64,000 bases of DNA from an uncultured Alphaproteobacteria bacterium (GTDB taxonomy: Bacteria; Pseudomonadota; Alphaproteobacteria; RF32; CAG-239), in assembly GCA_944391335.1 (NCBI GenBank), contig CALXTF010000004.1:16412-80411 (forward strand), written 5' to 3'. A program made the position numbers and the translations under genes. Below are positions 48,517 through 64,000 of this stretch, in pieces (position 1 is the stretch's first letter; each line of letters starts with the position of its first letter). The notes below the pieces were generated by a model. The model did no database searches. It had not been told where the DNA came from and was given only the letters and a program-made list of their open reading frames with translations.

Positions 48517-48591
48517 TGGGGTGTCGCCAAGAGGTAAGGCAACGGTTTTTGGTATCGTCATTCGTTGGTTCGAATCCAGCCACCCCAGCCA
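48517..48591 (+). tRNA. tRNA-Gln (anticodon UUG), copy 1
   Basis: The 75-nt cloverleaf was folded by hand: acceptor TGGGGTG/CACCCCA, anticodon stem ACGGT/ATCGT, loop TTTTGGT, T-arm GTTGG-TTCGAAT-CCAGC, encoded CCA. It is close to E. coli tRNA-Gln. Confidence 0.9.
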
Positions 48592-48699: not shown

Positions 48700-48737
48700 T
48701 AATGTCAAATTTTAGCCTATTTTATGAGGTGAATTTG

Positions 48738-50510
48738 ATGCTTTTTAAACGTAACTCCATTTATTATGCCGTTATAAATATTCCTAAATCACTGGTTCCT
48801 ATCTACCACCGCAAGCAAATCTGGCAATCATTACATACCAAAGACCGACGAATTGCCTCACTTCGGGTTGAACTTGAAACAATGGCGATACGACAACGAA
48901 TATTAAATGACTTGGAAAACCTTAAACATATCCAAAAAACTACTACCCCAAAAACACCACCTAAACCAGAGCCACCTATTATTTGCCGAGAAGTTGAATA
49001 TACCGAAGAAGAAGCCGAATTACACGCTTATGACTGGTTGACGCAAAAGTCCCATACTGAAAGCAGAAGGTTATTAAATGGCGCAAATCGAATGGAAGAA
49101 CGCAAATATTTTCAAAATCTCCTTTCTGCTTATGAATACAAATATCTCCAACGCAACTACCAAGACATATATGCAGAAACCAATAATTACTTCCAAGAAA
49201 AACAACTTGCGACACCTACCAAAACTTGCGCCGAGATGATATTTAATGCTTTTATGAGGGCAAAAATTCAGCTTTTACGGTATCTGATTGAGTTTTTGAA
49301 TGGCTATTGTGGTGAAATTGATGCCAGCCTTATTGACCGTATGTATTTTAAGCAACTGGATATATCAGCCGAACTCAAACAAAAGAAACAACACAAACCC
49401 GATATGTCTTTGATGCAAGTTGTTAAACATTATAATCAGACTGTATCACGCAACAAAACATCTGACGCAACTAAGGAACGTGTGGCATCAAAAATGGAAT
49501 TGATTGCTGAAATAATCGGGAAAACCAAACCTATGCGACAAATTTCCGCTGATGACTTAAACGACGTGATACAAAATATTCCATATATACCGAAACGTTT
49601 TGGTGAAGGTGTAACCAAAGGAAAAACCATCATCCAAGCAATCAATATGGCAAAACATAACAAAGCCCCTACTCTTTCCGAAAAAACACAAACTGATTAC
49701 ATTCACACATTAAGCTCAATATTTAAATGGGCAAAACAAAAGAAATTTATTGAAGAAAACCCAATGGAAGAAGTGGAAATCCCCTCAATTACCATCAATA
49801 AAAACCAAGACAAATACCTCCCATTTTCGATTAACCAGCTCAATATTATATTTCACTCGACGGTCTATCGTGGATGTTTAAATAATCGTATTGGTCGTTT
49901 CAAAGCTGGTGACAAGATTTATCGTGATGGCTTTTACTGGGTGCCTTTAATCGCCTTATTTTCTGGTATGAGACTTAATGAAATTTGCCAACTCACCACC
50001 GTAGATATTATTACTAAAGATGACGTTGTTTGTTTCAGTATTAACGATAAAAACGGAAAAAAAGTCAAAACCGCCAATGCCATTAGAATTATACCAATAC
50101 ACCCGATGTTAATAAAATGTGGCTTTCTGCAATATGTGGAACAACAAAAAAATAACGTTACCAACAAAACCCTGCGCATATTCCCCGAACTTGTGCCGAA
50201 TTGCCGTGGTGAATTATCAGCCAGCGTATCAAAGTTTTTTAATCGATTATTGGATAAACTTAATGAAACGATTGATAATGATGACGATAAATTTTTGCCT
50301 AAACACGTAGCGCACTCATTCAGACACACTTTTCGCAGTGAACTCCGTAACCATCAAGTTCCGCAGGAAAGAGTTGTTATTTTAGGTGGTTGGGATCAAG
50401 GTTCAAGTTTGGCATCACATTATGGGAGTATATCTGCCAAAGAACTCTATAAAACCGTTTCCGAAAATTTAACCTTTGATGGTTTAGATTTAAGTCATCT
50501 TTATGTATGA
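48738..50510 (+). CDS. int: Tyrosine recombinase / phage-type integrase
   Basis: Catalytic signature SGMRLNE (Arg), HSFRHTFRS (H-x-x-R), LGGW, SHYGS (Tyr). Start set at the ATG behind GAGGTG; the track start at 48702 is possible. Confidence 0.85.
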   Translation: MLFKRNSIYYAVINIPKSLVPIYHRKQIWQSLHTKDRRIASLRVELETMAIRQRILNDLENLKHIQKTTTPKTPPKPEPPIICREVEYTEEEAELHAYDWLTQKSHTESRRLLNGANRMEERKYFQNLLSAYEYKYLQRNYQDIYAETNNYFQEKQLATPTKTCAEMIFNAFMRAKIQLLRYLIEFLNGYCGEIDASLIDRMYFKQLDISAELKQKKQHKPDMSLMQVVKHYNQTVSRNKTSDATKERVASKMELIAEIIGKTKPMRQISADDLNDVIQNIPYIPKRFGEGVTKGKTIIQAINMAKHNKAPTLSEKTQTDYIHTLSSIFKWAKQKKFIEENPMEEVEIPSITINKNQDKYLPFSINQLNIIFHSTVYRGCLNNRIGRFKAGDKIYRDGFYWVPLIALFSGMRLNEICQLTTVDIITKDDVVCFSINDKNGKKVKTANAIRIIPIHPMLIKCGFLQYVEQQKNNVTNKTLRIFPELVPNCRGELSASVSKFFNRLLDKLNETIDNDDDKFLPKHVAHSFRHTFRSELRNHQVPQERVVILGGWDQGSSLASHYGSISAKELYKTVSENLTFDGLDLSHLYV

Positions 50511-52641: not shown

Positions 52642-54783
52642 ATGACATTACGCACGATTAAATCCACCAAATTTATGTCTGGCGCAGAAATTGCCGAAGA
52701 AAGTGATGCTCGCCTTGATAGCTTAAATAATGAAATTCGCATAACAAAAGATAACACGCACAAACAAAAGCTGATTAATTTAAGAAACCGATTGCAGCAT
52801 CATTCATCAGAAACGTTTGCCAATATCATTTACGCATCGCAACAACAAGAAATAAAATACGTTGAAATTAAGCATCTGATTGACAATTACAAGCTCTTAG
52901 CCGAAAGCAAAAAACTTAATCCAGATGATGTTTATTTCATAACCATTAACTGCTGCGAAGGTCATATCAATAAAAAGCCCTATTTTGTTGCGCCTAAAGA
53001 TTTAGCTAACTTCAACGTCAAGACTTCTAAAAATACTATTATTAAACAACTACGTGGATTAGGAACAGCTTTCGGTTATGTGGCATTTGAGGTAAAATAT
53101 GATATACGCATGGGAGCATTTTTGCCCCATTTTCATATTTTAATTTGTGGCATTAGTAAAAAGAACATAGAAGACTATTTCACTTGTTTATACCCTCTCG
53201 AATATCAATTTAAATTAAATCGAGATACTTTTATTGTGTCAAAGAAGAATGATCCACTCATTTATGAAAGACCGCAAAAACTAAAGGTAGTTGATATTGA
53301 GACCGTTAAAGATTCTGAAAAAGTAGCTAGTTATATGTGCAAATTCAAGACATATATGACAAACTATCAACAACAAGATTTAACAGCTTTACCATATTCT
53401 GAAAAGCGCCAAGATTACCACACAAGACCAGAAGATAAAATTCATAATTACCATTTATTGTTTTTGGATAAGTTGTCATTTGGTGAACAGGTGTTTTGTT
53501 TCAATAAGGGTTTACTGACGAACTTCATCAACAACAAAGCCGATAAAATGGCTCAAAACTGCATAAGAATAGCTAAAAGAGGCAAAAAAACGGGGAAATT
53601 GGGTAAAAAAGCCCCAAACCACAACACATACGCCAAGCCTATATCAACTAATAAGATTGTGTTACAATTTTTAAAGTATGATTCTTATAAACCAAAACAA
53701 GAAAAAATCATTGATTATATTAAAGACCATAAATCTTGTATTGTTATTCAACCTACTAATTTTGGTAAGAGTTTATGTTATTATGCATCAGCTTTACAAT
53801 TAAAAGGGTTATGTGTAGTTATAGAGCCTTTAGTATCTTTAATTTATGACCAAGTATCTAAACTTAATAAGATACATAAAAAGTTAGCTCTTGCATTTAC
53901 TGGTGAAACTAAACATAGAGATAAAAAATTAAAGAGATTAAAAAGAGGTATATATAAGTTTTTATATATAGCTCCTGAAATGTTAAAAAATATAGAGTTA
54001 AAAAAGGTATTGTCTAAATTAGATATTTGTATGATAGCCATTGATGAAGCGCATTGTATTGATGTATGGGGTGAAGATTTTAGACCTGATTATCAAGAGC
54101 CATTAAATAAACTTATAAAGAAATACCCAGATGCAAAAGTTATGGCATTGACGGCTACTGCAGGCGACATCACACAAAACGTTATTAAAAAAGTGTGCAA
54201 TATGCCTAAAAAAGCCAAAGTATTTAAAGGCAACTTAAACAGACCGAATATTAAGTATAGCGTAGTTAAAAAAGAATATGATGGATTACAACAGTTATTA
54301 GATACACTCAAACCATACCTTGATAAAGATAATAAACCGACAACTTCGATTATTATATATTGTGCTCATATTGATTATACTTTAGGACTTCAAGATATAT
54401 TAAAAGAGCGTGGTATTAATAGCTATGTATTTAATGGAAAGAGTGATAATAAAAAAGAAATACTCAAAAAATTTAAAAAGGAAAAATGTATTGTTCTAGC
54501 AACCAGTGCTTTCGGTATGGGGATTGATAAACCAGATGTACACTTAGTTATTCACTTTGAGGGTACGTATAATCTTGAAATGTATTATCAAGAATCTGGT
54601 CGGGTTGGTCGTGATGGTGAAAATTCTAAAGCTGTATTGTTTTATTCTGATATAGATATTGAAAGAATGACATATTTTGCCAAGAATGATACAATGAAAG
54701 AAAAGTTAAAGCTGGCTATTAAATATATGCAGATGACAAACAATAAAAAACGTCGTGAATTTTTATTAAATAGTATTGTCTAG
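52642..54783 (+). CDS. Fusion protein: N-terminal HUH-type rolling-circle Rep-like domain plus C-terminal RecQ-family SF2 helicase
   Basis: The N-terminus has YFITIN (motif I-like), LPHFHILICG (HUH) and KVASYMCKFK (Y-x-x-K). The C-terminus has PTNFGKSLCY, VVIEPLVSLIYDQV, DEAHCIDVWGEDFRPDY, ALTATA, SAFGMGIDKPDVHLVIH and YYQESGRVGRDG, all RecQ motifs. Confidence 0.8.
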   Translation: MTLRTIKSTKFMSGAEIAEESDARLDSLNNEIRITKDNTHKQKLINLRNRLQHHSSETFANIIYASQQQEIKYVEIKHLIDNYKLLAESKKLNPDDVYFITINCCEGHINKKPYFVAPKDLANFNVKTSKNTIIKQLRGLGTAFGYVAFEVKYDIRMGAFLPHFHILICGISKKNIEDYFTCLYPLEYQFKLNRDTFIVSKKNDPLIYERPQKLKVVDIETVKDSEKVASYMCKFKTYMTNYQQQDLTALPYSEKRQDYHTRPEDKIHNYHLLFLDKLSFGEQVFCFNKGLLTNFINNKADKMAQNCIRIAKRGKKTGKLGKKAPNHNTYAKPISTNKIVLQFLKYDSYKPKQEKIIDYIKDHKSCIVIQPTNFGKSLCYYASALQLKGLCVVIEPLVSLIYDQVSKLNKIHKKLALAFTGETKHRDKKLKRLKRGIYKFLYIAPEMLKNIELKKVLSKLDICMIAIDEAHCIDVWGEDFRPDYQEPLNKLIKKYPDAKVMALTATAGDITQNVIKKVCNMPKKAKVFKGNLNRPNIKYSVVKKEYDGLQQLLDTLKPYLDKDNKPTTSIIIYCAHIDYTLGLQDILKERGINSYVFNGKSDNKKEILKKFKKEKCIVLATSAFGMGIDKPDVHLVIHFEGTYNLEMYYQESGRVGRDGENSKAVLFYSDIDIERMTYFAKNDTMKEKLKLAIKYMQMTNNKKRREFLLNSIV

Positions 54784-55464: not shown

Positions 55465-56037
55465 TTAATCGGGCTTTCGATTTAGTTTGCACACTTTTGA
55501 GGCTGTGTTATCGAGGTATACCTTGTTTATACAGTAGATATTCCTTGTCATTAGTTGATATTTTTTCTCTCCTTTCTTATGGGATATACTATTCATATTG
55601 ATACTAGGCATGCCATCGCTATCGAAAAACCTTAGCTTGTTATTGGATAGACCTTTATAAACTGAGTAATGATCCCACTCCTTACACTTAACTCTTACTA
55701 TTAAAGAATTATCAAATTTGAGTTGCTCCATTTGATTAACTATCTCATCAAAACTCAGCTTGTTATTATAAAATGGGCGCATAAATTTTATTTGAGGCTG
55801 TTTCGTTGTTTTTAGATAATCGTTTATAAAAGTCAGTATTTGCTCCAATCTCTTATAATCAGCTCCATTCTCGGCAACATCAAAAAATGAGCTATAACAC
55901 TCTAACTGGTCGATAACATAGTCATATAAGGCTTGAGCTTTCTTTTGTGGTAAATCATATCCAAGCATAACTAACGAGTTAATTCCCGAATATACACTAC
56001 AAAAACGGTCTAATGCTCCTTGCTTAAAAGGTTTCAT
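55465..56037 (-). CDS. Hypothetical protein with possible papain-like Cys/His peptidase fold
   Basis: QGALDRFCSVYSGIN (Q...C) and WDHYSVY (H) are spaced like C39-type peptidases; this is a tentative call. The start ATG lies 1 nt after the upstream stop (TAATATG). Confidence 0.35.
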   Translation of the reverse strand: MKPFKQGALDRFCSVYSGINSLVMLGYDLPQKKAQALYDYVIDQLECYSSFFDVAENGADYKRLEQILTFINDYLKTTKQPQIKFMRPFYNNKLSFDEIVNQMEQLKFDNSLIVRVKCKEWDHYSVYKGLSNNKLRFFDSDGMPSINMNSISHKKGEKKYQLMTRNIYCINKVYLDNTASKVCKLNRKPD

Positions 56038-56038
56038 A

Positions 56039-56362
56039 TTAATACTCACTCGCAAACATAACTGTTAAAACCCTATTAGTTACTTCTTCTAACTCTGGAT
56101 TGGGCGAGTAGTATTCGTAATTCAAATCATACATATCAATCTTCCAGAAAATTTGTTGCTCGTGATAATCAAAACAGCCAAAATCATGTTCGCCATAAGG
56201 GTCATTGTCTTCGGTAAAGATATTAAATGTTTTTACTTTATTTATAATCTCTTGTTGCTGTTCGGTTGGTAGGCTAGCAATCCCACTTGTTAAAATAACT
56301 TTGCCACTGATTAGAGTAGTCCTAAATTTATCATTTAATTCAGCAATGCGTTTTGTATTCAT
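56039..56362 (-). CDS. DUF3768-family protein
   Basis: NDPYGEHDFG...IFWKIDMYD...NRVLTVMFASEY matches my recollection of the conserved DUF3768 blocks common on plasmids and ICEs. Confidence 0.6.
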   Translation of the reverse strand: MNTKRIAELNDKFRTTLISGKVILTSGIASLPTEQQQEIINKVKTFNIFTEDNDPYGEHDFGCFDYHEQQIFWKIDMYDLNYEYYSPNPELEEVTNRVLTVMFASEY

Positions 56363-56724: not shown

Positions 56725-56906
56725 ATGAAAAAAGATGATGCAAAGCTATTCGTGAAATTCTAGAAAGACTGAAGAAGGATTTAATCCACCGCCGAGGCTT
56801 TGTTTGCCAATGGTGTGGACATAAAGCCTTAACCCCAACTGGCGGAACTTGCCCCAACAGCCCCAATGACAAACATCAATACATCAAAGCTAATGTTGAT
56901 GAGTAA
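56725..56906 (+). pseudogene. Decayed Cys-rich (zinc-ribbon-like) mini-gene, copy 1
   Basis: AGGAG RBS and ATG at 56725 run into TAG after 12 codons. A different frame (from 56745) reads AIREILERLKKDLIHRRGFVCQWCGHKALTPTGGTCPNSPNDKHQYIKANVDE but has no start codon. Confidence 0.45.
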
Positions 56907-56955
56907 AAATATGCTCTAAATCAATAAACAGAATGTTTGAAAAACAGCGAAATAA

Positions 56956-57104
56956 TTGCACGTTCAAAAAAATAACACACCAAGCACACCAGCATATATC
57001 TGCCAATTTTGCGGAAAGAAAACCACAACTCCCACGGTGGTATCTGTCGCTTTTCCCCATACCAAAACAAAACCCATAAGTTTATCAAGGCTGAAATAAT
57101 ATAG
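56956..57104 (+). pseudogene. Decayed Cys-rich mini-gene, copy 2 (frameshifted paralogue)
   Basis: ...YICQFCGKKTTTP in one frame continues as HGGICRFSPYQNKTHKFIKAEII in another. It is collinear with copy 1 (CQ[WF]CG.K..TP.GG.C..SP...KH.[YF]IKA). Confidence 0.45.
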
Positions 57105-57186
57105 GTTTATACAAAATATTTTACTAAATTAACTAACTCTTATCTTTTTTGATTCTAAGATGCATAAGGTTGAAAGGAATCAATGA

Positions 57187-57906
57187 ATGATTAATACGTT
57201 AGAAGAATTTATTGCCTGTTATAAAGAAATTAAACAGCAAGGATGGATTAGAACACATAGAAGTGGTCCTACTGGAATCGGTAAAACATTGGAAGATTTA
57301 CTAGGAATTCCAGAAAATAATCTACATGAACCTGACTTTGGTGATTATGAACTTAAATCGTGTCGAATAGGTTCTAATAGTATGCTAACATTATTTACCC
57401 AGACACCTCAACCGCCAAGAGCTAATTCTTATCTGCGTGAAAAGTATGGTTATTCCAGTGACGCTTATGATAATGATGAAAAAGTTTTACATGCTACATT
57501 AACTGCATCAAGGTACACTTCAATTGCAAACACTAGTAAATCATTAAAAATTACGTGTTCATCTGATAAAATTTTTATAAGCTCAAATACAGAAGATGAA
57601 GATGTATATTGGAATAAAAATGAACTAGAAAAAAGTTTTAATAAAAAATATAAAAACAAATTTGTATATGCAAAAGCTTTATGTCGTGGAACAAGAGATA
57701 GTGAAGAATTTCTTTTCACGGAAGCTTATGAAGTTTCTGGATTCTCATATGATTCATTTATACGGCTTTTAGAAGAAGGTAAAATATATGTAGATTTACG
57801 TATAGGGCAATATCCTGATGGAAGAACTCATGACCATGGGACAGGATTCCGTATTAGAGAAGAAGACCAAAACCTTCTTTTTACAATAAACAGAAAAATT
57901 GTATAA
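57187..57906 (+). CDS. Type II restriction endonuclease, MvaI/BcnI family (MutH-like PD-ExK)
   Basis: 239 aa. GPTGIGKTLEDLLGI, EPDFGDYELKS (PD...ExK), LTLFTQTP and GRTHDHGTGFRI are collinear with my recollection of the R.MvaI/R.BcnI blocks. The size matches those monomeric enzymes. Confidence 0.8.
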   Translation: MINTLEEFIACYKEIKQQGWIRTHRSGPTGIGKTLEDLLGIPENNLHEPDFGDYELKSCRIGSNSMLTLFTQTPQPPRANSYLREKYGYSSDAYDNDEKVLHATLTASRYTSIANTSKSLKITCSSDKIFISSNTEDEDVYWNKNELEKSFNKKYKNKFVYAKALCRGTRDSEEFLFTEAYEVSGFSYDSFIRLLEEGKIYVDLRIGQYPDGRTHDHGTGFRIREEDQNLLFTINRKIV

Positions 57907-60099
57907 TTAACTGATTTTCTTCAATACAACGATATGCTCATTTGTCATTGTTGCAACTTTCTCACCACTTATATTTGTTGGAGAGTTTAGAGAAGGCATA
58001 ACTTTATTTGATATATTTCTATCAATAGTATAAATATGTTTAAGCCCATAATTTTGAGCCAATTCCGAAATAATTTTATCAGTTTGCAGATAAATATTTT
58101 TAACCGTTCTATTACCAACCACCCAGAATTGATATCCTGCTTTTTTGGTTTTTTGGGCTATCGTACGTATGGATTCATCTAACTCTTTGTAAAAACTAAA
58201 AACATCACCAGACCTTTCTATATCTATATCTTTTATTCTTTCTAATGCCTTTCTTAAAGTCTCACTATGTAATGAATATTCAAAGCCATTTCTGTATTTT
58301 TTTCCACCCATTAAAGATTTATCTATGCTCATTATTTCTTGGTTAGTTAAATTATCAATATTAAGCCATTGTAAAGACAAACGACTATATTCACCATATG
58401 CTACCGTAGTCCTGCTGTCACCATAAGGCGGAGACGTTATAATTAAATCATATTCATTATCTTCCACATCAGTTAATGTTATGGCATTATTATTCAAAAT
58501 AGATACCAGTGGTTTTGTATCTATTGTATTTAAAATTTCTCCAAATTCATTCATTTTTTCAATATTGCGTGTCAATATATCTTCAAAAATTTTTATTACA
58601 TTTGGTGAAAAGGCGTCTAATTTATTTTTGGGAAGACGAAACATTTTAAATTCACCATTTCTGCGGTTAGAAACGTACCTAATTGTCTCACTCATCGCAA
58701 TATAACAAAAATCACGAATATAGATATTTTTAATTTCAGCAATACAATTTTTAATTAATTGCAGCAATAATATCACATTTGGTTTAAACCAATACCCTAA
58801 ATTTTTAAATGATGGCAATGAGAAGTCCTTATTTTTTAATCTACAATATTTTTCTAAATACAAATGAGCGTTTTCACCCCATCCATCTTTGGCCGATATA
58901 TCAAGTTTTTCTTGTTCAATTATATATGCATTTACAGAATCATAGAAGTCCTTATCGTTATTATAATTTTCTTTGATTCTATGCATTAGCAAAATTGTTT
59001 CTTGCTGTAATAAATTAATATCTATATTGGTTGTCTTAACTTTCGACAAATACAAAGCCAAAGGATTAATATCGCAACCTGTAACTTTATTAATACCTGC
59101 TAATAATCCTTCAACAAGTACTGTTCCTGAACCAACAAAAGGATCTAACAATGAATTGATATTTTTTACTTTTTTCACCAATCTAATTATATTTTTACTA
59201 ATAGGTGCGACCATAACTGCTGGATAAGAATGTAGTCCATGTGTATATTCGTGTACATCATTTCCTTTAAAATCCCAAAATCTCTCTGGTAACTCTTTTA
59301 ATCTCTTAACTAAATTTTCCTCTTCTTCGGTATGATTCTCAAATAAATCCATTTGTTGCTCATCTTCTATAGAATTTGATATTTTATCATTTATACCTTT
59401 ATGGGTCTTTACTTCTACTGTGCAAATAGTATCATTATGCCAACCACCATGTGGAACCATTAAAATTCGCTCTATTTCAAAACCGTATTTATATCCAATA
59501 CCTCCACTATTCCATCCGAAAGTGATTACTTTTCCTCCAATCTTAACAATACGTGAAATTTCTTTTTTATGATTTCCCCAAAAAGATGCTTTAGTTGTAT
59601 CCCATGTTACATTGTAACCAACATCATTATAGCACTCACTAACTTGTCTTGGGGAATATGGTGGGTCATATAAAACACCATCAATACTATCGTCTTCAAA
59701 AATTTTTAAGAAATCAAGTGCATCCAAATGATAATCTGTATCGTATTTTTCATTTAAATCATTCGTAATATTAGCAAATTTGTTCTTATTGGCAAATGGG
59801 TCGATCCATGTACCTTGTGTCATTTCATCTTGTATTAAGGATGCAATAGGTTTGATGTCAAAAGTATTTTTGTTCGGCATAGCCCATACTCTTTCAATAA
59901 TGACATCTTTATTGTTATTTGGAATAATCGAATTTATTTTCTTTCTAGCATCATTCGGTTTAGAAGCATTCAACGGAATACACCATACATTACCTATACG
60001 TTCAACTCCATCTATTCTATTTTGTGTGCATAATGCCTGCACTCGTCTTGCAGTCATATTCCACTTCGTTGCAGCTTCTTTAACACTTAAATATTTCAT
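57907..60099 (-). CDS. HTH + two DNA methyltransferase domains in one polypeptide
   Basis: N-terminal excisionase/MerR-like HTH (LSVKEAATKWNMTARRVQAL...WCIP). Domain 1 has WIDPFANKNK ... VLYDPPYSPRQ. Domain 2 has HSYPAVMVAPI, LLDPFVGSGTVLVEG ... IITSPPYGDSR. Start at the ATG behind GAGAGG (60099). Confidence 0.8.
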   Translation of the reverse strand: MKYLSVKEAATKWNMTARRVQALCTQNRIDGVERIGNVWCIPLNASKPNDARKKINSIIPNNNKDVIIERVWAMPNKNTFDIKPIASLIQDEMTQGTWIDPFANKNKFANITNDLNEKYDTDYHLDALDFLKIFEDDSIDGVLYDPPYSPRQVSECYNDVGYNVTWDTTKASFWGNHKKEISRIVKIGGKVITFGWNSGGIGYKYGFEIERILMVPHGGWHNDTICTVEVKTHKGINDKISNSIEDEQQMDLFENHTEEEENLVKRLKELPERFWDFKGNDVHEYTHGLHSYPAVMVAPISKNIIRLVKKVKNINSLLDPFVGSGTVLVEGLLAGINKVTGCDINPLALYLSKVKTTNIDINLLQQETILLMHRIKENYNNDKDFYDSVNAYIIEQEKLDISAKDGWGENAHLYLEKYCRLKNKDFSLPSFKNLGYWFKPNVILLLQLIKNCIAEIKNIYIRDFCYIAMSETIRYVSNRRNGEFKMFRLPKNKLDAFSPNVIKIFEDILTRNIEKMNEFGEILNTIDTKPLVSILNNNAITLTDVEDNEYDLIITSPPYGDSRTTVAYGEYSRLSLQWLNIDNLTNQEIMSIDKSLMGGKKYRNGFEYSLHSETLRKALERIKDIDIERSGDVFSFYKELDESIRTIAQKTKKAGYQFWVVGNRTVKNIYLQTDKIISELAQNYGLKHIYTIDRNISNKVMPSLNSPTNISGEKVATMTNEHIVVLKKIS

Positions 60100-60192
60100 A
60101 TTATTACCTCTCACATTTGTTTTATACGCAAAAACGAACAAATGCAAGGCAAAAATATTTTTAATAACAAAACATTTGGTATGTATTATTTA

Positions 60193-61971
60193 TTAACCAT
60201 TAAAAAATTGTTCATATAAGTCTCTTCCCATTTGGGCATAATGACTGGCTTTATAATTCAAAAAATTAAATTTAGAAACATCTTGAAGTTTTTCTTTATA
60301 ATAAGTGACATTTCCTGTTTTTTTATTTATAATTAAATTTCTCAAACAGTTAATAATCCCATTAATAAATGTAACATTTAACACGTTATTTGTATTTTTT
60401 CTTCTAAATTTCCATTGATCTTGCCCTATAGCTTCCTTAAAAGCTATAAATAAGAACCTTAATTGTTCCGCACAAAAATCTCTATATTCATTTAAGATAT
60501 CATATTCTTCACTTGTATATACTTCTTTATTTTCTTTACTTGCTATTTTTAATCTTTCCTTATTTGTGTTACCCCATAAAGAATATAAACTATCATCCCC
60601 TTCTAGCTTGACTAAAGGTTTTAATCCATAACTGATAATGGAAGCCGTTTTAATTTTTTCCTTTTCAAATGCCAGTGTTTCAAATTTATCGCAGAGAGGG
60701 CCAGATTCATTCAATTTCAATAAAATTTTTCTGGCAATTGCAACTGTCGAAAATGGCTTTTGAACTTCTTCTATTATCTGCAACAATTCAGAACTAACTT
60801 TCTTCTGATTAGAATTAATTTCTTTAAAAATCGTTGCTTCAAATTTTAAACAATCTTGTTTTGGTAAGTTGCGAGGAAATAAAATTGCTGTAACTAAAAG
60901 ATTTTGTTTTACTCTCAACTTTGCAATTTTTTCCTCATAAGTATCTGTTCCTTCATGATATGTATAAACTCTATGCTGACCATCTATAATGCCAATAATA
61001 TTTGCATGATCTTTAATCTCTACGGAAATTGGATCAGTTTTTATTGTTCTGCTTGAACCATCAGCTTGGAACTCACCATTATCATCTATTATTATTTTTT
61101 CCGATTTTTCGTTATATAATGTAATTTCATCTATAGGAATCGTAACTATAATATTGTTTATGAATACTCTATCATTATCATATAAAAATTTACGCATTGA
61201 TTTTATCTTAGATGGATTTAACATTCTCTGATAAAAAACTACATCGTCATCATCATTCCAACCATCTTTTCTCAAGACTTGCGCTCGTCTTAACAAGGAA
61301 GCTGCATCGATGTAAAAAGATATTATTTTAAAACCATTATTAAATGAAGAATGATGTTCTGGTAAAATGTTTCCTTTAAAACTATTTGTAGACAATGACG
61401 TTGATTGCAAAACTTTTACTCCTATACAGTCATCATCTATATTCAAAAATTTAAAAAATTCAGACTTTGCTGATCTTTTAATTACTGAAACTATTTTCTT
61501 AAAATATAACAAAGTCGGATATTCTATGTATGTAACATTAGAAACGACTTCTTTATGTTCATTAGCTATTTTTTGTTTAGAAATATAGACTATTCTCACT
61601 TGTGCTTGATCTAATGAATACATATTATCAAAACGATCCCGCATAAAATCCCTAAATCCTGAAAATTTCTCATGATTTTTTAAGAATTCTATAAATTTTT
61701 TAGGATTTTCGTTTATTTTACTATATATCACATTTTTTTTAAGCAAATGAGTAGATGTGTCCCCTACAGTATCTTCTATCAGTAAAATTACATTTTCATA
61801 AACATAAATTGCATCTAATTCACTTGTCCTACTTTCATACTCAAATTCTGTTCCGTTAATACGAGGAACTGAAGAAAAACCCATATTTATCAGAAAGTCT
61901 CGTATCTCTTTTCTGAATGCCCTCTGTTCTTTTTCTTGATCGGTTAATTTTCTCTTTCTTTTCTTTACCAT
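60193..61971 (-). CDS. DGQHR-domain protein (DndB-like, ParB/Srx superfamily) with an extra N-terminal domain
   Basis: Literal motif IIGIIDGQHRVYTYHEG in the middle of a 592-aa protein. The first 200 aa or so are unassigned. Start ATG lies 1 nt after the upstream MTase stop (TAATATG) with AAGGA as RBS; the track start at 61998 is less likely. Confidence 0.75.
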   Translation of the reverse strand: MVKKRKRKLTDQEKEQRAFRKEIRDFLINMGFSSVPRINGTEFEYESRTSELDAIYVYENVILLIEDTVGDTSTHLLKKNVIYSKINENPKKFIEFLKNHEKFSGFRDFMRDRFDNMYSLDQAQVRIVYISKQKIANEHKEVVSNVTYIEYPTLLYFKKIVSVIKRSAKSEFFKFLNIDDDCIGVKVLQSTSLSTNSFKGNILPEHHSSFNNGFKIISFYIDAASLLRRAQVLRKDGWNDDDDVVFYQRMLNPSKIKSMRKFLYDNDRVFINNIIVTIPIDEITLYNEKSEKIIIDDNGEFQADGSSRTIKTDPISVEIKDHANIIGIIDGQHRVYTYHEGTDTYEEKIAKLRVKQNLLVTAILFPRNLPKQDCLKFEATIFKEINSNQKKVSSELLQIIEEVQKPFSTVAIARKILLKLNESGPLCDKFETLAFEKEKIKTASIISYGLKPLVKLEGDDSLYSLWGNTNKERLKIASKENKEVYTSEEYDILNEYRDFCAEQLRFLFIAFKEAIGQDQWKFRRKNTNNVLNVTFINGIINCLRNLIINKKTGNVTYYKEKLQDVSKFNFLNYKASHYAQMGRDLYEQFFNG

Positions 61972-61972
61972 A

Positions 61973-63250
61973 TTAAAGTTCCTTGTATTCATTTTCATCT
62001 ATATCTAATTTAATAGGACTTAAAATCACCTCTTTTTCATTAATTCGATCATCTAAATTGATACCCCTAATAAATTTATGCGTTATCTTATTTGAATAGG
62101 AATACAATTTTTCTTTAGGGCTTATTAATTTATCAATTTTATCTACATAAGAAAAAAGAGCGTCAATGCCAAATTTAGACAACGGAGCTTTAGAAATTAG
62201 TGCATTAATTATTTTTTCTATCTTTTCTTTTTCTTTTAATGTAGATAATAATATTGTGTACTTGTAGCAATCAACACTGTTTTTCTTTAAACATTTTTCT
62301 GATGATTTTTCAACTTTTATCTTTTGTACAATCCTTACATCTTGATCATCTATCTTTTTTAACAATATTCTTGCATATTTAAGAGCTCTCAATTGCAAAA
62401 TTATTTTTTCAAAATCCATTTGATTGACCAAATACTTTTTCTCTTTTTCATATTCCGATTGCTTCTCTGTATTCGTATTTTTTATATAATTTTTAAACAT
62501 CGAAATATATTCAGAATTTAGCTCCGTTCCTATATATCTTCTATTCATATTTAAGGCTTTAGCTAAAACAGTTCCGCTTCCACTAAAAGGATCTAAAACA
62601 ACATCATTTTCTTCTGTTGATAACGTCAATATCCTCGCAACAAGATCTTCTGGGAGTGGGCAAAAATGGCGTATATAACCTTTTCCCCAAGAACCTTGAG
62701 TTGGTATTGGATAATGCCAAATACCATCGGGAGTTTTTCCTTTAGGGTTATAACGCTCTGGATATCTTATCCACCAAGATTTAAGTACTTCATAATCTCT
62801 GATTTTATCAATGAAAAACTTGTAATCGTCTGTTTTAGAAAACATCAAAATATACTCAAAAGAATTTCGCATCTGCCCTTTATGCGTCCATGGAACTGTT
62901 TTATCTTTTTCCCATATAATGATTTCTCGGAATATCCATCCAGCTTCTCTTATTTTATTTGCTATATCGAAAGGCAATGCAACAATTTCACCATCTTTTC
63001 TCAACGCATCAACTATAACCCATAAACTTCCTGTAGATTTTGTACATGCATAAACACTCTTAAAAACTGTACCAATATCGTTTAGATATTCTTTATAAGA
63101 CTGACCAAAACCTATTTGTTCTTTGTAGCCATAATCCTTCATATCAAAATATGGAGGAGATGTTACAGTAACATCCACTATTGGCTCTTTTATTAGTTTA
63201 TCAATCTTACGAGCGTCGTATTTATGTATATTACACAGCTTATCGTTCAT
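61973..63250 (-). CDS. Beta-class N4/N6 DNA methyltransferase with an unassigned C-terminal extension of about 170 aa
   Basis: Motif IV VTVTSPPYFD near the N-terminus, followed later by motif I VVLDPFSGSGTVLAKA (IV-then-I order, the beta class). Confidence 0.85.
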   Translation of the reverse strand: MNDKLCNIHKYDARKIDKLIKEPIVDVTVTSPPYFDMKDYGYKEQIGFGQSYKEYLNDIGTVFKSVYACTKSTGSLWVIVDALRKDGEIVALPFDIANKIREAGWIFREIIIWEKDKTVPWTHKGQMRNSFEYILMFSKTDDYKFFIDKIRDYEVLKSWWIRYPERYNPKGKTPDGIWHYPIPTQGSWGKGYIRHFCPLPEDLVARILTLSTEENDVVLDPFSGSGTVLAKALNMNRRYIGTELNSEYISMFKNYIKNTNTEKQSEYEKEKKYLVNQMDFEKIILQLRALKYARILLKKIDDQDVRIVQKIKVEKSSEKCLKKNSVDCYKYTILLSTLKEKEKIEKIINALISKAPLSKFGIDALFSYVDKIDKLISPKEKLYSYSNKITHKFIRGINLDDRINEKEVILSPIKLDIDENEYKEL

Positions 63251-63469
63251 ATTCTTTACTTAACATTACTCCAAACTGTTATAATAGTATATTTTATATC
63301 AATTCATAGCAACAAAAATATACTTACTACACCCAATTTATAGCATGCTAACCTATCATACAAAATTTACGACCAGTTTTGCATATAAATTACGACTTCC
63401 ACACTCAAAACCGATTAAATTGAAGATAAACCGCATACTATTATCTCTTAGAAGCAAAATGATAGTTGC

Positions 63470-63508
63470 AAAAATGAAACTATTATCGCCAAAAAATGAA
63501 ACTATTAT
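63470..63508 (+). repeat. Two perfect 17-nt direct repeats AAAAATGAAACTATTAT with a 22-bp period (iteron-like)
   Basis: Copies at 63470..63486 and 63492..63508. A further ACTATTAT lies about 35 nt upstream. Confidence 0.8.
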
Positions 63509-63570
63509 TTTTAGAACCACCGCAAACTAAAATATATCAACATTAATTCCCTTGCATTTTTTCGTCATAC

Positions 63571-63705
63571 AATGCGGTGGTGCTGTTTTGTGCATCATTT
63601 ATCGTGAAAAATCAATTTTCACACTCAAAACTCAGGAAAACGAAGGCAAACGATATATGAAACTTAATACAAAACGCACACCGACGACATTCAGACCACC
63701 GCATT
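63571..63705. repeat. 11-bp inverted repeat AATGCGGTGGT / ACCACCGCATT, plus a third ACCACCGCA copy at 63516
   Basis: Arms at 63571..63581 and 63695..63705. A direct copy of the 9-mer core is at 63516..63524. Confidence 0.75.
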
Positions 63706-63826
63706 AATTTTTGTAAATTTGAATTAACAAAATCCACGGAAATGAAGTTTTTGTAAAATAGAATTTACACTTTTAGCAAATAAAATTCCACAAAGCCTAA
63801 AAATGACCTATTGACAAGGAGTTAGC

Positions 63827-63873
63827 TGCTAATATATGGTGATGGAAAGTGCTAATGTTAACTGCTAATATTT
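63827..63873 (+). repeat. Three TGCTAAT boxes just upstream of tRNA-Gln copy 2
   Basis: TGCTAATATAT (63827), TGCTAATGTT (63850) and TGCTAATATTT (63863). The same core occurs twice at 48654/48690 next to int. Confidence 0.7.
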
Positions 63874-63934
63874 GACAGCAAACAGCATATAGCAAGAAGG
63901 TCGCTTAATATTGATAAACGATTGGAAAATTATT

Positions 63935-64000
63935 TGGGGTGTCGCCAAGTGGTAAGGCATCGGCTTTTGGTGCCGACATTCGTTGGTTCGAATCCAGCCA
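63935..64000 (+). tRNA. tRNA-Gln (anticodon UUG), copy 2, truncated by the window edge
   Basis: Same acceptor, T-arm and anticodon loop as copy 1. The anticodon stem is TCGGC/GCCGA and there is one D-loop change. The last 9 nt or so lie beyond position 64000. Confidence 0.9.

Follow-up and report, generated by a model that had tools for sequence, protein, structure and literature searches.

The stretch of DNA analysed here, 64,000 nucleotides from an uncultured alphaproteobacterium (GCA_944391335.1, contig CALXTF010000004.1, positions 16,412 to 80,411) and called the window in the following, carries four closely spaced genes between positions 57187 and 63250. Judged from its sequence and from that of related loci, this region is two separate defence modules which lie side by side on an integrated island. 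One of them (module 1) is an MvaI-like restriction-modification (R-M) system, the other consists of a DNA methylase and a 592-aa protein with a DGQHR domain, and it is this second pair with which we are mainly concerned. We think it somewhat more probable than otherwise that the methylase-DGQHR pair is an R-M-like system too, in which the DGQHR protein would be a ParB-fold, nucleoside triphosphate (NTP)-gated nuclease effector. The four genes and their predicted parts are the following.

61973-63250, minus strand: beta-class methylase of the pair, 425 aa; catalytic region ~62444-63250, C-terminal extension 61976-62443
60193-61971, minus strand: DGQHR protein, predicted NTP-gated restriction nuclease, 592 aa; TIGR03187, 68.8 bits
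61399-61971, minus strand: predicted N-terminal PD-(D/E)xK-like domain of the DGQHR protein (residues 1-191), D53...E66-x-T68...H75...K79; AlphaFold2 (AF2) model and Foldseek
60610-61320, minus strand: DGQHR (ParB/Srx-fold) domain of the same protein, with Q248 R249, RVFINNII and DGQHR 330-334; TIGR03187
60196-60609, minus strand: C-terminal helical region of the same protein; helices with a predicted local distance difference test score (pLDDT) of 80-96, within the weak TIGR04172 alignment
57907-60099, minus strand: fusion of a helix-turn-helix (HTH) domain, a small and a large methylase, 730 aa; methylase of the MvaI-like R-M module
~59920-60096, minus strand: HTH of the fusion
~59389-59874, minus strand: M1.BcnI-like small methylase of the fusion (DPPY)
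~57916-59280, minus strand: large methylase of the fusion (DPFVGSGT...TSPPY)
57187-57906, plus strand: MvaI-like type II restriction endonuclease, 239 aa; PF15515, E=2.6e-50; PADLOC REase_II, E=1.3e-34; R.MvaI (2oa9), E=5.5e-34

All four open reading frames (ORFs), and with them the motifs and junctions on which an initial annotation of this DNA had been built, were found on reading the sequence exactly where that annotation had placed them. The methylase gene of the pair passes into the DGQHR gene by the junction TAAtATG, a gap of 93 nt separates the DGQHR gene from the fusion gene, and the stop codons of the fusion gene and of the convergent nuclease gene abut at 57906/57907. The fusion most plausibly starts at ATG 60099, which is preceded by GAGG and gives 730 aa; the mechanical ORF list begins at TTG 60147. 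For the DGQHR gene there are two candidate starts, the choice between which is not settled: ATG 61971 gives 592 aa and lies near the point where the homologues begin (M-A/V-K-K...), and ATG 61998, which is used by the public gene call, gives 601 aa and a 26-nt overlap with the methylase gene. A scan of 56900-64000 for promoters and terminators yielded 46 against 43.5 and 1 against 2.3 in shuffled sequence, respectively, and no operon boundary was readable from it.

That the pair forms a unit of its own is supported by its linkage. Relatives of the DGQHR protein were collected with one genome per species, resulting in 80 loci of 35-75% identity from Bacteroidota, Alpha-, Beta-, Gamma- and Deltaproteobacteria, Bacilli, Fusobacterium, Patescibacteria, Acidobacteria, Calditrichota and a Thermoplasmatota archaeon, and the conservation of their neighbours was assessed by tblastn with the four window proteins and by all-against-all clustering of the neighbouring ORFs. 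Only two families are conserved across these loci, the DGQHR protein itself and a PF01555 methylase. The methylase is found at most about 8 kb from the DGQHR gene in 79 of the 80, the last being cut by a contig end, and where both genes are intact (about 75 loci) it is in about 70 the gene immediately before the DGQHR gene, in the same orientation and with gaps mostly between -44 and +36 nt; in the exceptions it is divergent, three genes off or about 4.6 kb off. No MvaI/BcnI, dnd, dpd or ssp gene, on the other hand, keeps company with the pair in these loci. The co-occurrence of DGQHR homologues with PF01555 methylases, which had been suggested as a check, thus exists, while the link to MvaI/BcnI nucleases that was named along with it does not.

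Mobile elements show the same association. Nine full-length relatives of the DGQHR protein are present on prophage contigs of IMG/VR, eight of them with the methylase adjacent and the ninth at a contig end. In the Akkermansia phage Chantilly and two related contigs a long-type methylase (56% identical) is convergent to the DGQHR gene, between integrase and repressor, which indicates that the association does not depend on the order in an operon. A Rhizobium plasmid carries a 'site-specific DNA-methyltransferase' followed by a 'DGQHR domain-containing protein' with a 1-nt gap. In addition, the linkage was tested in reverse by a metagenome search with the C-terminal extension of the methylase. 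Among the 72 loci with at least 300 nt of downstream sequence, 70 have a DGQHR gene (68 directly adjacent, 2 nearby), the other two being weak matches. In two loci (L023 and L071) the DGQHR gene is frameshifted or split beside an intact methylase gene, as happens with restriction genes.

Some loci deserve separate mention. The closest relative in the genome collection, a metagenome-assembled genome named 'Acetobacter sp. 46_36' (L001:6690-9727, 75-85% identity), has both the methylase and the DGQHR gene split into two ORFs each, by decay or by assembly frameshifts. Three distant relatives from IMG/VR (L099, L100 and L101, 22-24% identity) match from residue 1 or 81 to residue 398 only; a methylase of the pair type was not detected nearby, and they may represent a second architecture that shares the nuclease-like and DGQHR parts. 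In four Bacteroidota loci (L005, L006, L031 and L039) the pair is flanked by a recurrent trio consisting of a 549-aa HATPase_c_3 (MORC-like) protein and two proteins of about 295 and about 250 aa, both without a Pfam match. In L005 the genes for the ATPase and the 295-aa protein separate the methylase gene from the DGQHR gene, and the F2 member is found alone in L010, L044 and L046. The trio could be a further defence system, or an accessory.

The initial annotation had weighed two possibilities, two modules or one four-gene system in which the DGQHR protein senses or loads on DNA and regulates, or works beside, the MvaI-like nuclease and the three methylase domains. The single system finds its argument in physical adjacency alone: four genes within 6 kb, three of them (DGQHR, methylase and fusion) on one strand with no more than the 93-nt gap before the fusion, the abutting stop codons, and the same arrangement in a metagenome locus, L105, which is 99% identical to the window. 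This L105 is, however, the sole one of 80 metagenome loci in which an MvaI/BcnI nuclease or the fusion methylase stands beside the pair, and the numbers for the genome and viral loci are 0 of 80 and 0 of 12. The fusion and the nuclease in turn occur without a DGQHR gene in six loci, and in the nearest relatives of the pair, at 90-91% identity, the slot of the MvaI-like module is filled by a type I R-M system. Because each of the modules recurs without the other, and because a type I R-M system takes the place of module 1 in close relatives, we regard them as independent cassettes. The comparative loci therefore support the two-module version and refute the four-gene one, for which we see hardly any probability left, and the term 'candidate undescribed defence system', coined for all four genes, is retained for the methylase-DGQHR pair only. 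For annotation this is a reminder that nuclease and methylase genes which follow closely on one another in a defence island need not be one system but may be two cassettes.

For the pair itself, no description was found in the literature, and no PADLOC (2.0) model matches it save for a weak match to DpdB. Databases call the larger protein only 'DGQHR domain-containing protein' or 'hypothetical', despite its wide distribution. The first search returned 852 full-length relatives with about 50% identity across phyla, and the family comprises about 270 clusters at 50% identity, one of which has 585 member sequences. It ranges over Bacteroidota (including common human-gut Bacteroides), Proteobacteria, Bacilli, Fusobacteria, Patescibacteria, one archaeon and prophages.

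Residues ~218-592 of the window protein make up a DGQHR/DndB-like body. The match to the DGQHR profile TIGR03187 lies above the cutoff of 58.85 bits, and the motifs that define the DGQHR type (QR, FxxxN, DGQHR; PMC4619093) are represented by Q248-R249, RVFINN (N272-N273) and DGQHR 330-334, all of them invariant or nearly so in an alignment of 75 sequences. Residues 228-581 can be aligned weakly to the whole of dnd-associated DGQHR protein 1 (TIGR04172, E=1.7e-8). The cutoffs of the named families are missed by far, however, for DndB (PF14072, 24.8 vs 29.1 bits) as for TIGR04172 (33.9 vs 450) and DpdB (NF041060, 21.4 vs 300). Pfam gave no match to DUF262, DUF1524, HNH or ParBc, and an SF2 helicase domain was not found with the Pfam, PADLOC and NCBIfam profiles. 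A DndB-like protein has been shown to bind ATP and GTP, and mutation of the P-motif arginine abolishes binding in the ParB fold (PMC12704722). The group of ParB-like proteins is often fused to HNH, PD-(D/E)xK or HEPN nucleases and is tied to modification systems, and for DndB a HEPN C-terminal domain has been described (Makarova et al. 2013, PMC3632139). In the DGQHR protein no HEPN-type Rx4-6H motif stands out from the invariant positions, a statement that rests on inspection of these residues, no further search having been made.

The similarity to DndB, DpdB and dnd-associated DGQHR protein 1, weak as it is, lends itself to an explanation in which the pair has a role in modification alone or in regulation. 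On this view the DGQHR protein would be a DNA-binding NTPase that controls the transcription of the methylase gene in the manner of DndB, or loads the enzyme on DNA and assists it there as DpdB does with DpdA, and any nuclease-like fold in it would serve DNA binding only. The DGQHR domain as such, the fact that the methylase with the C-terminal extension almost never occurs without the DGQHR protein, as would be predicted for an obligate helper, and the high conservation of the latter without a variable recognition domain are all in line with this explanation. Its weak point is the N-terminal part of the protein.

Residues 1-191 show no sequence match in Pfam, NCBIfam, PADLOC or the Protein Data Bank (PDB). 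A Pfam scan of 40 sequences of this domain at E<=10 resulted in scattered matches at chance level, with one to Card1_endonuc at 0.045, and the full-length alignment used as a profile against PDB sequences gave no match at E<=10. Since sequence families give no assignment, the nuclease call for the domain rests on its fold and on residue conservation. The AF2 model of the domain is of good quality (pLDDT 92.9, predicted template modelling score 0.89; 79.9 is the pLDDT of the full-length protein) and consists of a helix, four strands, a helix and further elements. Almost all of the top ~30 Foldseek matches in the PDB are PD-(D/E)xK nucleases (probability 0.8-1.0), with Cdn1 as the best (E=4.8e-4), together with the endonuclease domain of the R2 retrotransposon, R.BspD6I, Nt.BspD6I, AF1548, Bax1, Can2, Card1, VC1899, LmuA and the cap-snatching endonucleases of arenaviruses. 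For Cdn1, the R2 domain, R.BspD6I, AF1548, Bax1, Can2 and Card1 the probability is 0.95-1.0. The full-length model retrieves the same list of nucleases and, weakly, the N-domain of pNOB8 ParB and BrxU (7p9m, E=0.56).

In the alignment of 75 sequences, which takes in phage and plasmid copies and reaches down to 30% identity, residues D53, N60, E66, T68, H75, K79, Y129 and Y156 are invariant without exception. In the model D53 is placed just before one strand and E66-x-T68 at the end of the next, while H75 and K79 are on the helix that follows. D53 and E66 occupy the positions expected for a PD-(D/E)xK site, with T68 in the slot of the lysine. For this superfamily a variant has been described in which the lysine has migrated to the second core helix (PD-EXX-K; PMC3424549), and from the model we predict that the domain is a candidate PD-(D/E)xK-like nuclease of a D...ExT...K type. 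A phmmer search of 1.84 billion representatives detected the domain in 268 proteins, always at the N-terminus and never in a protein longer than 612 aa, the shorter matches looking like fragments; the domain is therefore confined to the DGQHR architecture.

The possession of a nuclease-like domain of its own, which the initial annotation had overlooked, makes the DGQHR protein a likelier effector than regulator. Acidic, lysine and histidine residues that are invariant in 75 of 75 sequences are hard to reconcile with a fold for binding only. A specific helper interface is also difficult to combine with partner methylases from two subfamilies of about 25% identity, one of which lacks the C-terminal extension (see below), and neither the frameshifted DGQHR genes beside intact methylase genes in L023 and L071 nor the presence of the pair in defence islands and, in one prophage, within the lysogeny module speak for a regulator. 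The genomic context of the pair, so far as the neighbouring genes tell, fits defence: elsewhere it is accompanied by type I R-M systems, an SLFN-like helicase, toxin-antitoxin and HNH genes, C5 methylases and integrases. We thus consider it unlikely that the DGQHR protein is a helper or regulator.

The methylase of the pair is a member of PF01555 (E=1.7e-45, residues 25-253) and is matched by PADLOC MTase_II models and weakly by MTase_III. It has TSPPY at residue 31 and then DPFSGSG at residue 220, which is the order of the beta class. The unassigned C-terminal extension mentioned in the initial annotation is indeed present; it comprises about 155 aa with the conserved motifs LRALKYAR and APLSKFGIE and shows no match to Pfam or any other family, and a profile search of the PDB with its alignment gave a chance hit only. 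SPPY is motif IV in 72 of the 75 partner methylases. This motif is typical of N4-cytosine methylases, and on its account alone the enzyme probably makes N4-methylcytosine (N4mC). The partner methylases fall into two subfamilies, a long one (~420 aa) with the C-terminal extension and a short one (~315 aa) without it, and since the two are interleaved on the tree of the DGQHR proteins the methylase partner must have been exchanged several times. According to the metagenome search the extension is specific to DGQHR-linked methylases, yet it is missing from the short subfamily, in which it is evidently dispensable.

The properties of the methylase bring up a variant of our favoured reading that is type III-like or mark-sensing. 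Here the nuclease would have no specificity of its own and would be recruited by the methylase in the style of Mod and Res, possibly via the C-terminal extension, or it would be switched on by the host mark like SspE, and the ParB-fold NTPase would stand in for the helicase motor as a switch that works by sliding or by a change of conformation. Several observations agree with it, namely the position of the methylase as the first, tightly coupled gene as in mod-res operons, its beta-class PF01555 type together with the weak MTase_III match, the restriction of the extension to DGQHR-linked methylases and the strong conservation of a DGQHR protein without a clear recognition domain, and SspE and DndI provide precedents (PMC11662687). 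The short methylases, however, pair just as strictly without an extension, the convergent genes of the Akkermansia prophage are not co-translated, and an SF2 helicase domain is lacking. Furthermore, the DGQHR protein does have variable segments (residues 101-120, 281-320 and 481-500) which could be recognition elements. We take this variant to be a serious possibility though clearly a minority one.

For the pair as an NTP-gated R-M-like system, which remains the reading we prefer, the following course of events can be proposed. The beta-class SPPY methylase would mark the DNA of the host, and the translationally coupled 592-aa DGQHR protein would be the restriction component. Its N-terminal PD-(D/E)xK-like domain (D53, E66-x-T68 and K79 from the next helix) would cut or nick DNA, whereas the DGQHR ParB-fold domain would bind and hydrolyse NTP as a switch that might couple the recognition of the methylation state to loading, to release or to the licensing of the nuclease. 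This scheme is modelled on DndI and SspE, in which a ParB-like NTPase-HNH nickase is combined with a phosphorothioate (PT) module.

There are several points that weigh against this proposal. DndB, which is the DGQHR protein studied best, has a regulatory function, and DpdB is reported to be an ATPase that helps a modifying enzyme. In the fold search of the N-terminal domain the template modelling scores reach only 0.35-0.41, and no E-value is below 4.8e-4. The canonical lysine position is taken by an invariant threonine, so that catalysis hinges on K79 reaching the site. At the sequence level the DGQHR protein matches no characterised restriction enzyme, no PADLOC restriction endonuclease (REase) model and no PDB chain. 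With about 50% identity across phyla it is conserved to an unusual degree, a variable recognition domain is not obvious in it, and a methylase-dependent (type III-like) or helper role would fit such conservation equally well. Finally, the long methylase is almost never solitary, which is less typical of type II methylases.

Among the known systems closest to the pair are DndI and SspE and the type IV enzymes GmrSD/BrxU. In DndI an HNH nickase is joined to a ParB-like NTPase; the protein damages DNA without the PT mark and leaves marked DNA through stimulated ATP hydrolysis, and SspE uses GTP in a related manner (PMC11662687). DndI, SspE and GmrSD/BrxU have in common with the DGQHR protein that one polypeptide combines a ParB/Srx-fold NTPase (with DGQQR, related to DGQHR; PMC4619093) and a nuclease, the nuclease being a prediction in our case. 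DndI and SspE are in addition paired with a modification module, and NTP hydrolysis couples the reading of the mark to the nuclease (PMC11662687). In contrast to these proteins, the ParB-fold domain of the pair is of DGQHR type and not DUF262, to which there was no match, the nuclease-like domain is an N-terminal PD-(D/E)xK-like one instead of a C-terminal HNH (DUF1524), and the partner is a single methylase instead of a dnd/ssp sulfur-modification operon. The resemblance to GmrSD, SspE and DndI is therefore one of architecture and logic, not of family membership.

DndB, DpdB and dnd-associated DGQHR protein 1 contain the same type of domain, including the motifs QR, FxxxN and DGQHR, but the window protein is far below their family cutoffs, has an additional nuclease-like domain of about 200 aa at the N-terminus and is partnered by a methylase. 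The island contains no dndC, dndD or dndE, and dndCDE, dpdA and dpdC are absent from the vicinity of the pair in every locus.

With classical type II R-M systems the pair shares the two-gene cassette, the methylase in first place, the tight coupling, the variable settings in mobile elements and defence islands and the occasional disruption of the putative restriction gene beside an intact methylase. Type IIP enzymes, however, lack an NTP-binding ParB-fold domain, and the putative nuclease of the pair matches no characterised REase family. In type III R-M systems Res has an SF2 helicase and a nuclease, so that merely gene order and a beta-class methylase are shared. Fusions of a ParB domain with a PF01555 methylase in phages likewise show a domain of the ParB superfamily in functional association with an N6/N4 methylase (PMC12704722). 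The genes of the pair are nevertheless separate, with a stop and a start of their own, the domain is of DGQHR type and not ParBc and is joined to a nuclease-like domain, and the pair occurs mainly in chromosomal islands and prophages of many phyla. The suggestion that the locus is a split version of such a fusion finds no support, as there is no ParBc match and the architecture differs.

The logic of a modification enzyme combined with a ParB-fold NTPase-nuclease is a known one; what is new is the way in which the domains are combined, the methyl mark and the family. Whether this amounts to an unrecognised class of R-M system, whose restriction enzyme would join a variant PD-(D/E)xK nuclease to a DGQHR ParB-fold NTP switch that reads a methyl mark (probably N4mC), as the methylation-based counterpart of the PT readers DndI and SspE, seems to us evenly balanced. 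A working R-M-like pair would constitute a new restriction-enzyme architecture, and a ParB-fold NTP switch, familiar so far in chromosome segregation and in nucleases of the PT-sensing or type IV kind, would then be seen to read ordinary base methylation. It would also provide a role for a family whose annotation stops at 'DGQHR domain-containing protein' and which is present in many gut Bacteroides genomes, and could explain orphan-looking m4C-type methylases in methylome surveys as well as barriers to the genetic manipulation of the hosts.

Module 1 (57187-60099), by contrast, is on the strength of its sequence an ordinary MvaI-type type II R-M system. The nuclease covers the full MvaI_BcnI profile (PF15515) with 172 bits against a cutoff of 25 and is nearer to R.MvaI (121 bits) than to R.BcnI (2odh, 49 bits, E=4.5e-12). 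In detail, residues 2-60 of the fusion form an excisionase-type HTH (E=1e-6; the match to HTH_17 is weak), which may take a regulatory role. Residues 76-237 form the small methylase with DPPY, which spans nearly the whole of the 186-aa phage methylase family phrog_11619 (176 bits), and residues ~274-728 the large methylase with DPFVGSGT...TSPPY (PADLOC MTase_II PDLC03322, 414 bits; phrog_18146). In the translation of the small domain IDPFANKN precedes DPPY by about 45 residues, and because of this short distance it fits the type of M1.BcnI without a target recognition domain (TRD). M1.BcnI is the type example of such small enzymes, which have no TRD insertion and fewer than 100 residues between the S-adenosylmethionine motif and the catalytic motif (bioRxiv 10.1101/2023.12.13.571470).

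More than 100 full-length relatives of the fusion methylase exist at 64-66% identity, and in 6 of the 6 other loci returned by two look-ups its homologue is convergent to an MvaI_BcnI nuclease gene. These six loci lie on integrative mobilisable elements; in them a small C protein precedes the nuclease and the DGQHR gene is absent. A separate C protein was looked for upstream of the nuclease in the window, as in the related loci, and none was found. The BcnI system has two isospecific methylases (PMC5974420), and fused M1-M2 methylases occur in other type II systems, e.g. MhoVII (PMC12898733). Module 1 resembles the BcnI/MvaI systems in its MvaI/BcnI-family nuclease, presumably a monomer-type PD-(D/E)xK enzyme, and in its two predicted methylase activities, one small and TRD-less and one large, which would protect the host DNA, presumably at sites of the CCWGG/CCSGG type; it differs from them in that both methylases and the HTH are fused in one 730-aa protein and no separate C protein stands before the nuclease. 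The three methylase domains of the region, which had been taken as an anomaly, are all real, but two of them belong to this module and BcnI has two as well.

The island into which both modules are integrated has its likely left boundary at a tRNA gene and an integrase gene, and a further defence operon adjoins the methylase of the pair just past the end of the window.

48517-48591, plus strand: tRNA-Gln, likely island boundary
48702-50510, plus strand: tyrosine integrase, 602 aa (DUF6538 and Phage_integrase), likely left island boundary
~64306-65693 in window-equivalent positions (L081:356-1743), on the 83-kb source contig: cyclic-oligonucleotide-based antiphage signalling system (CBASS) operon, identified by PF26305 and PF18153

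The operon codes for a CD-NTase (PF26305) and a Cap15-type effector (PF18153), and with CBASS beside the pair and module 1 there are no fewer than three consecutive defence modules on the island. A megablast search against plasmids gave no match to 57000-64000.

A 713-aa protein encoded at 52642-54783 on the plus strand contains a RecQ-like helicase core at residues ~335-690 (PADLOC DpdF 300 bits, PsyrT 237 bits), and its N-terminal ~330 aa are without assignment. It might serve the replication of the island or be a further defence or toxin gene, and its core gives the only dpd-like match on the island. A dpd-like system formed by this DpdF-like helicase and the DGQHR protein was considered and rejected, since only the RecQ core matches, neither DpdA nor DpdC is present, and no helicase, this one included, is a constant neighbour of the pair. 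Between a resolvase gene and the MvaI-like nuclease gene there are two genes on the minus strand (55465-56362), one coding for a DUF3768 protein of 107 aa that overlaps the start of a 196-aa protein without a family match. Upstream of tRNA-Gln the window contains housekeeping genes, among them those for an MscS-type channel, a CNNM/CorC-type protein, isoleucyl-tRNA synthetase, a penicillin-binding protein, AsmA and a RecN-like protein.

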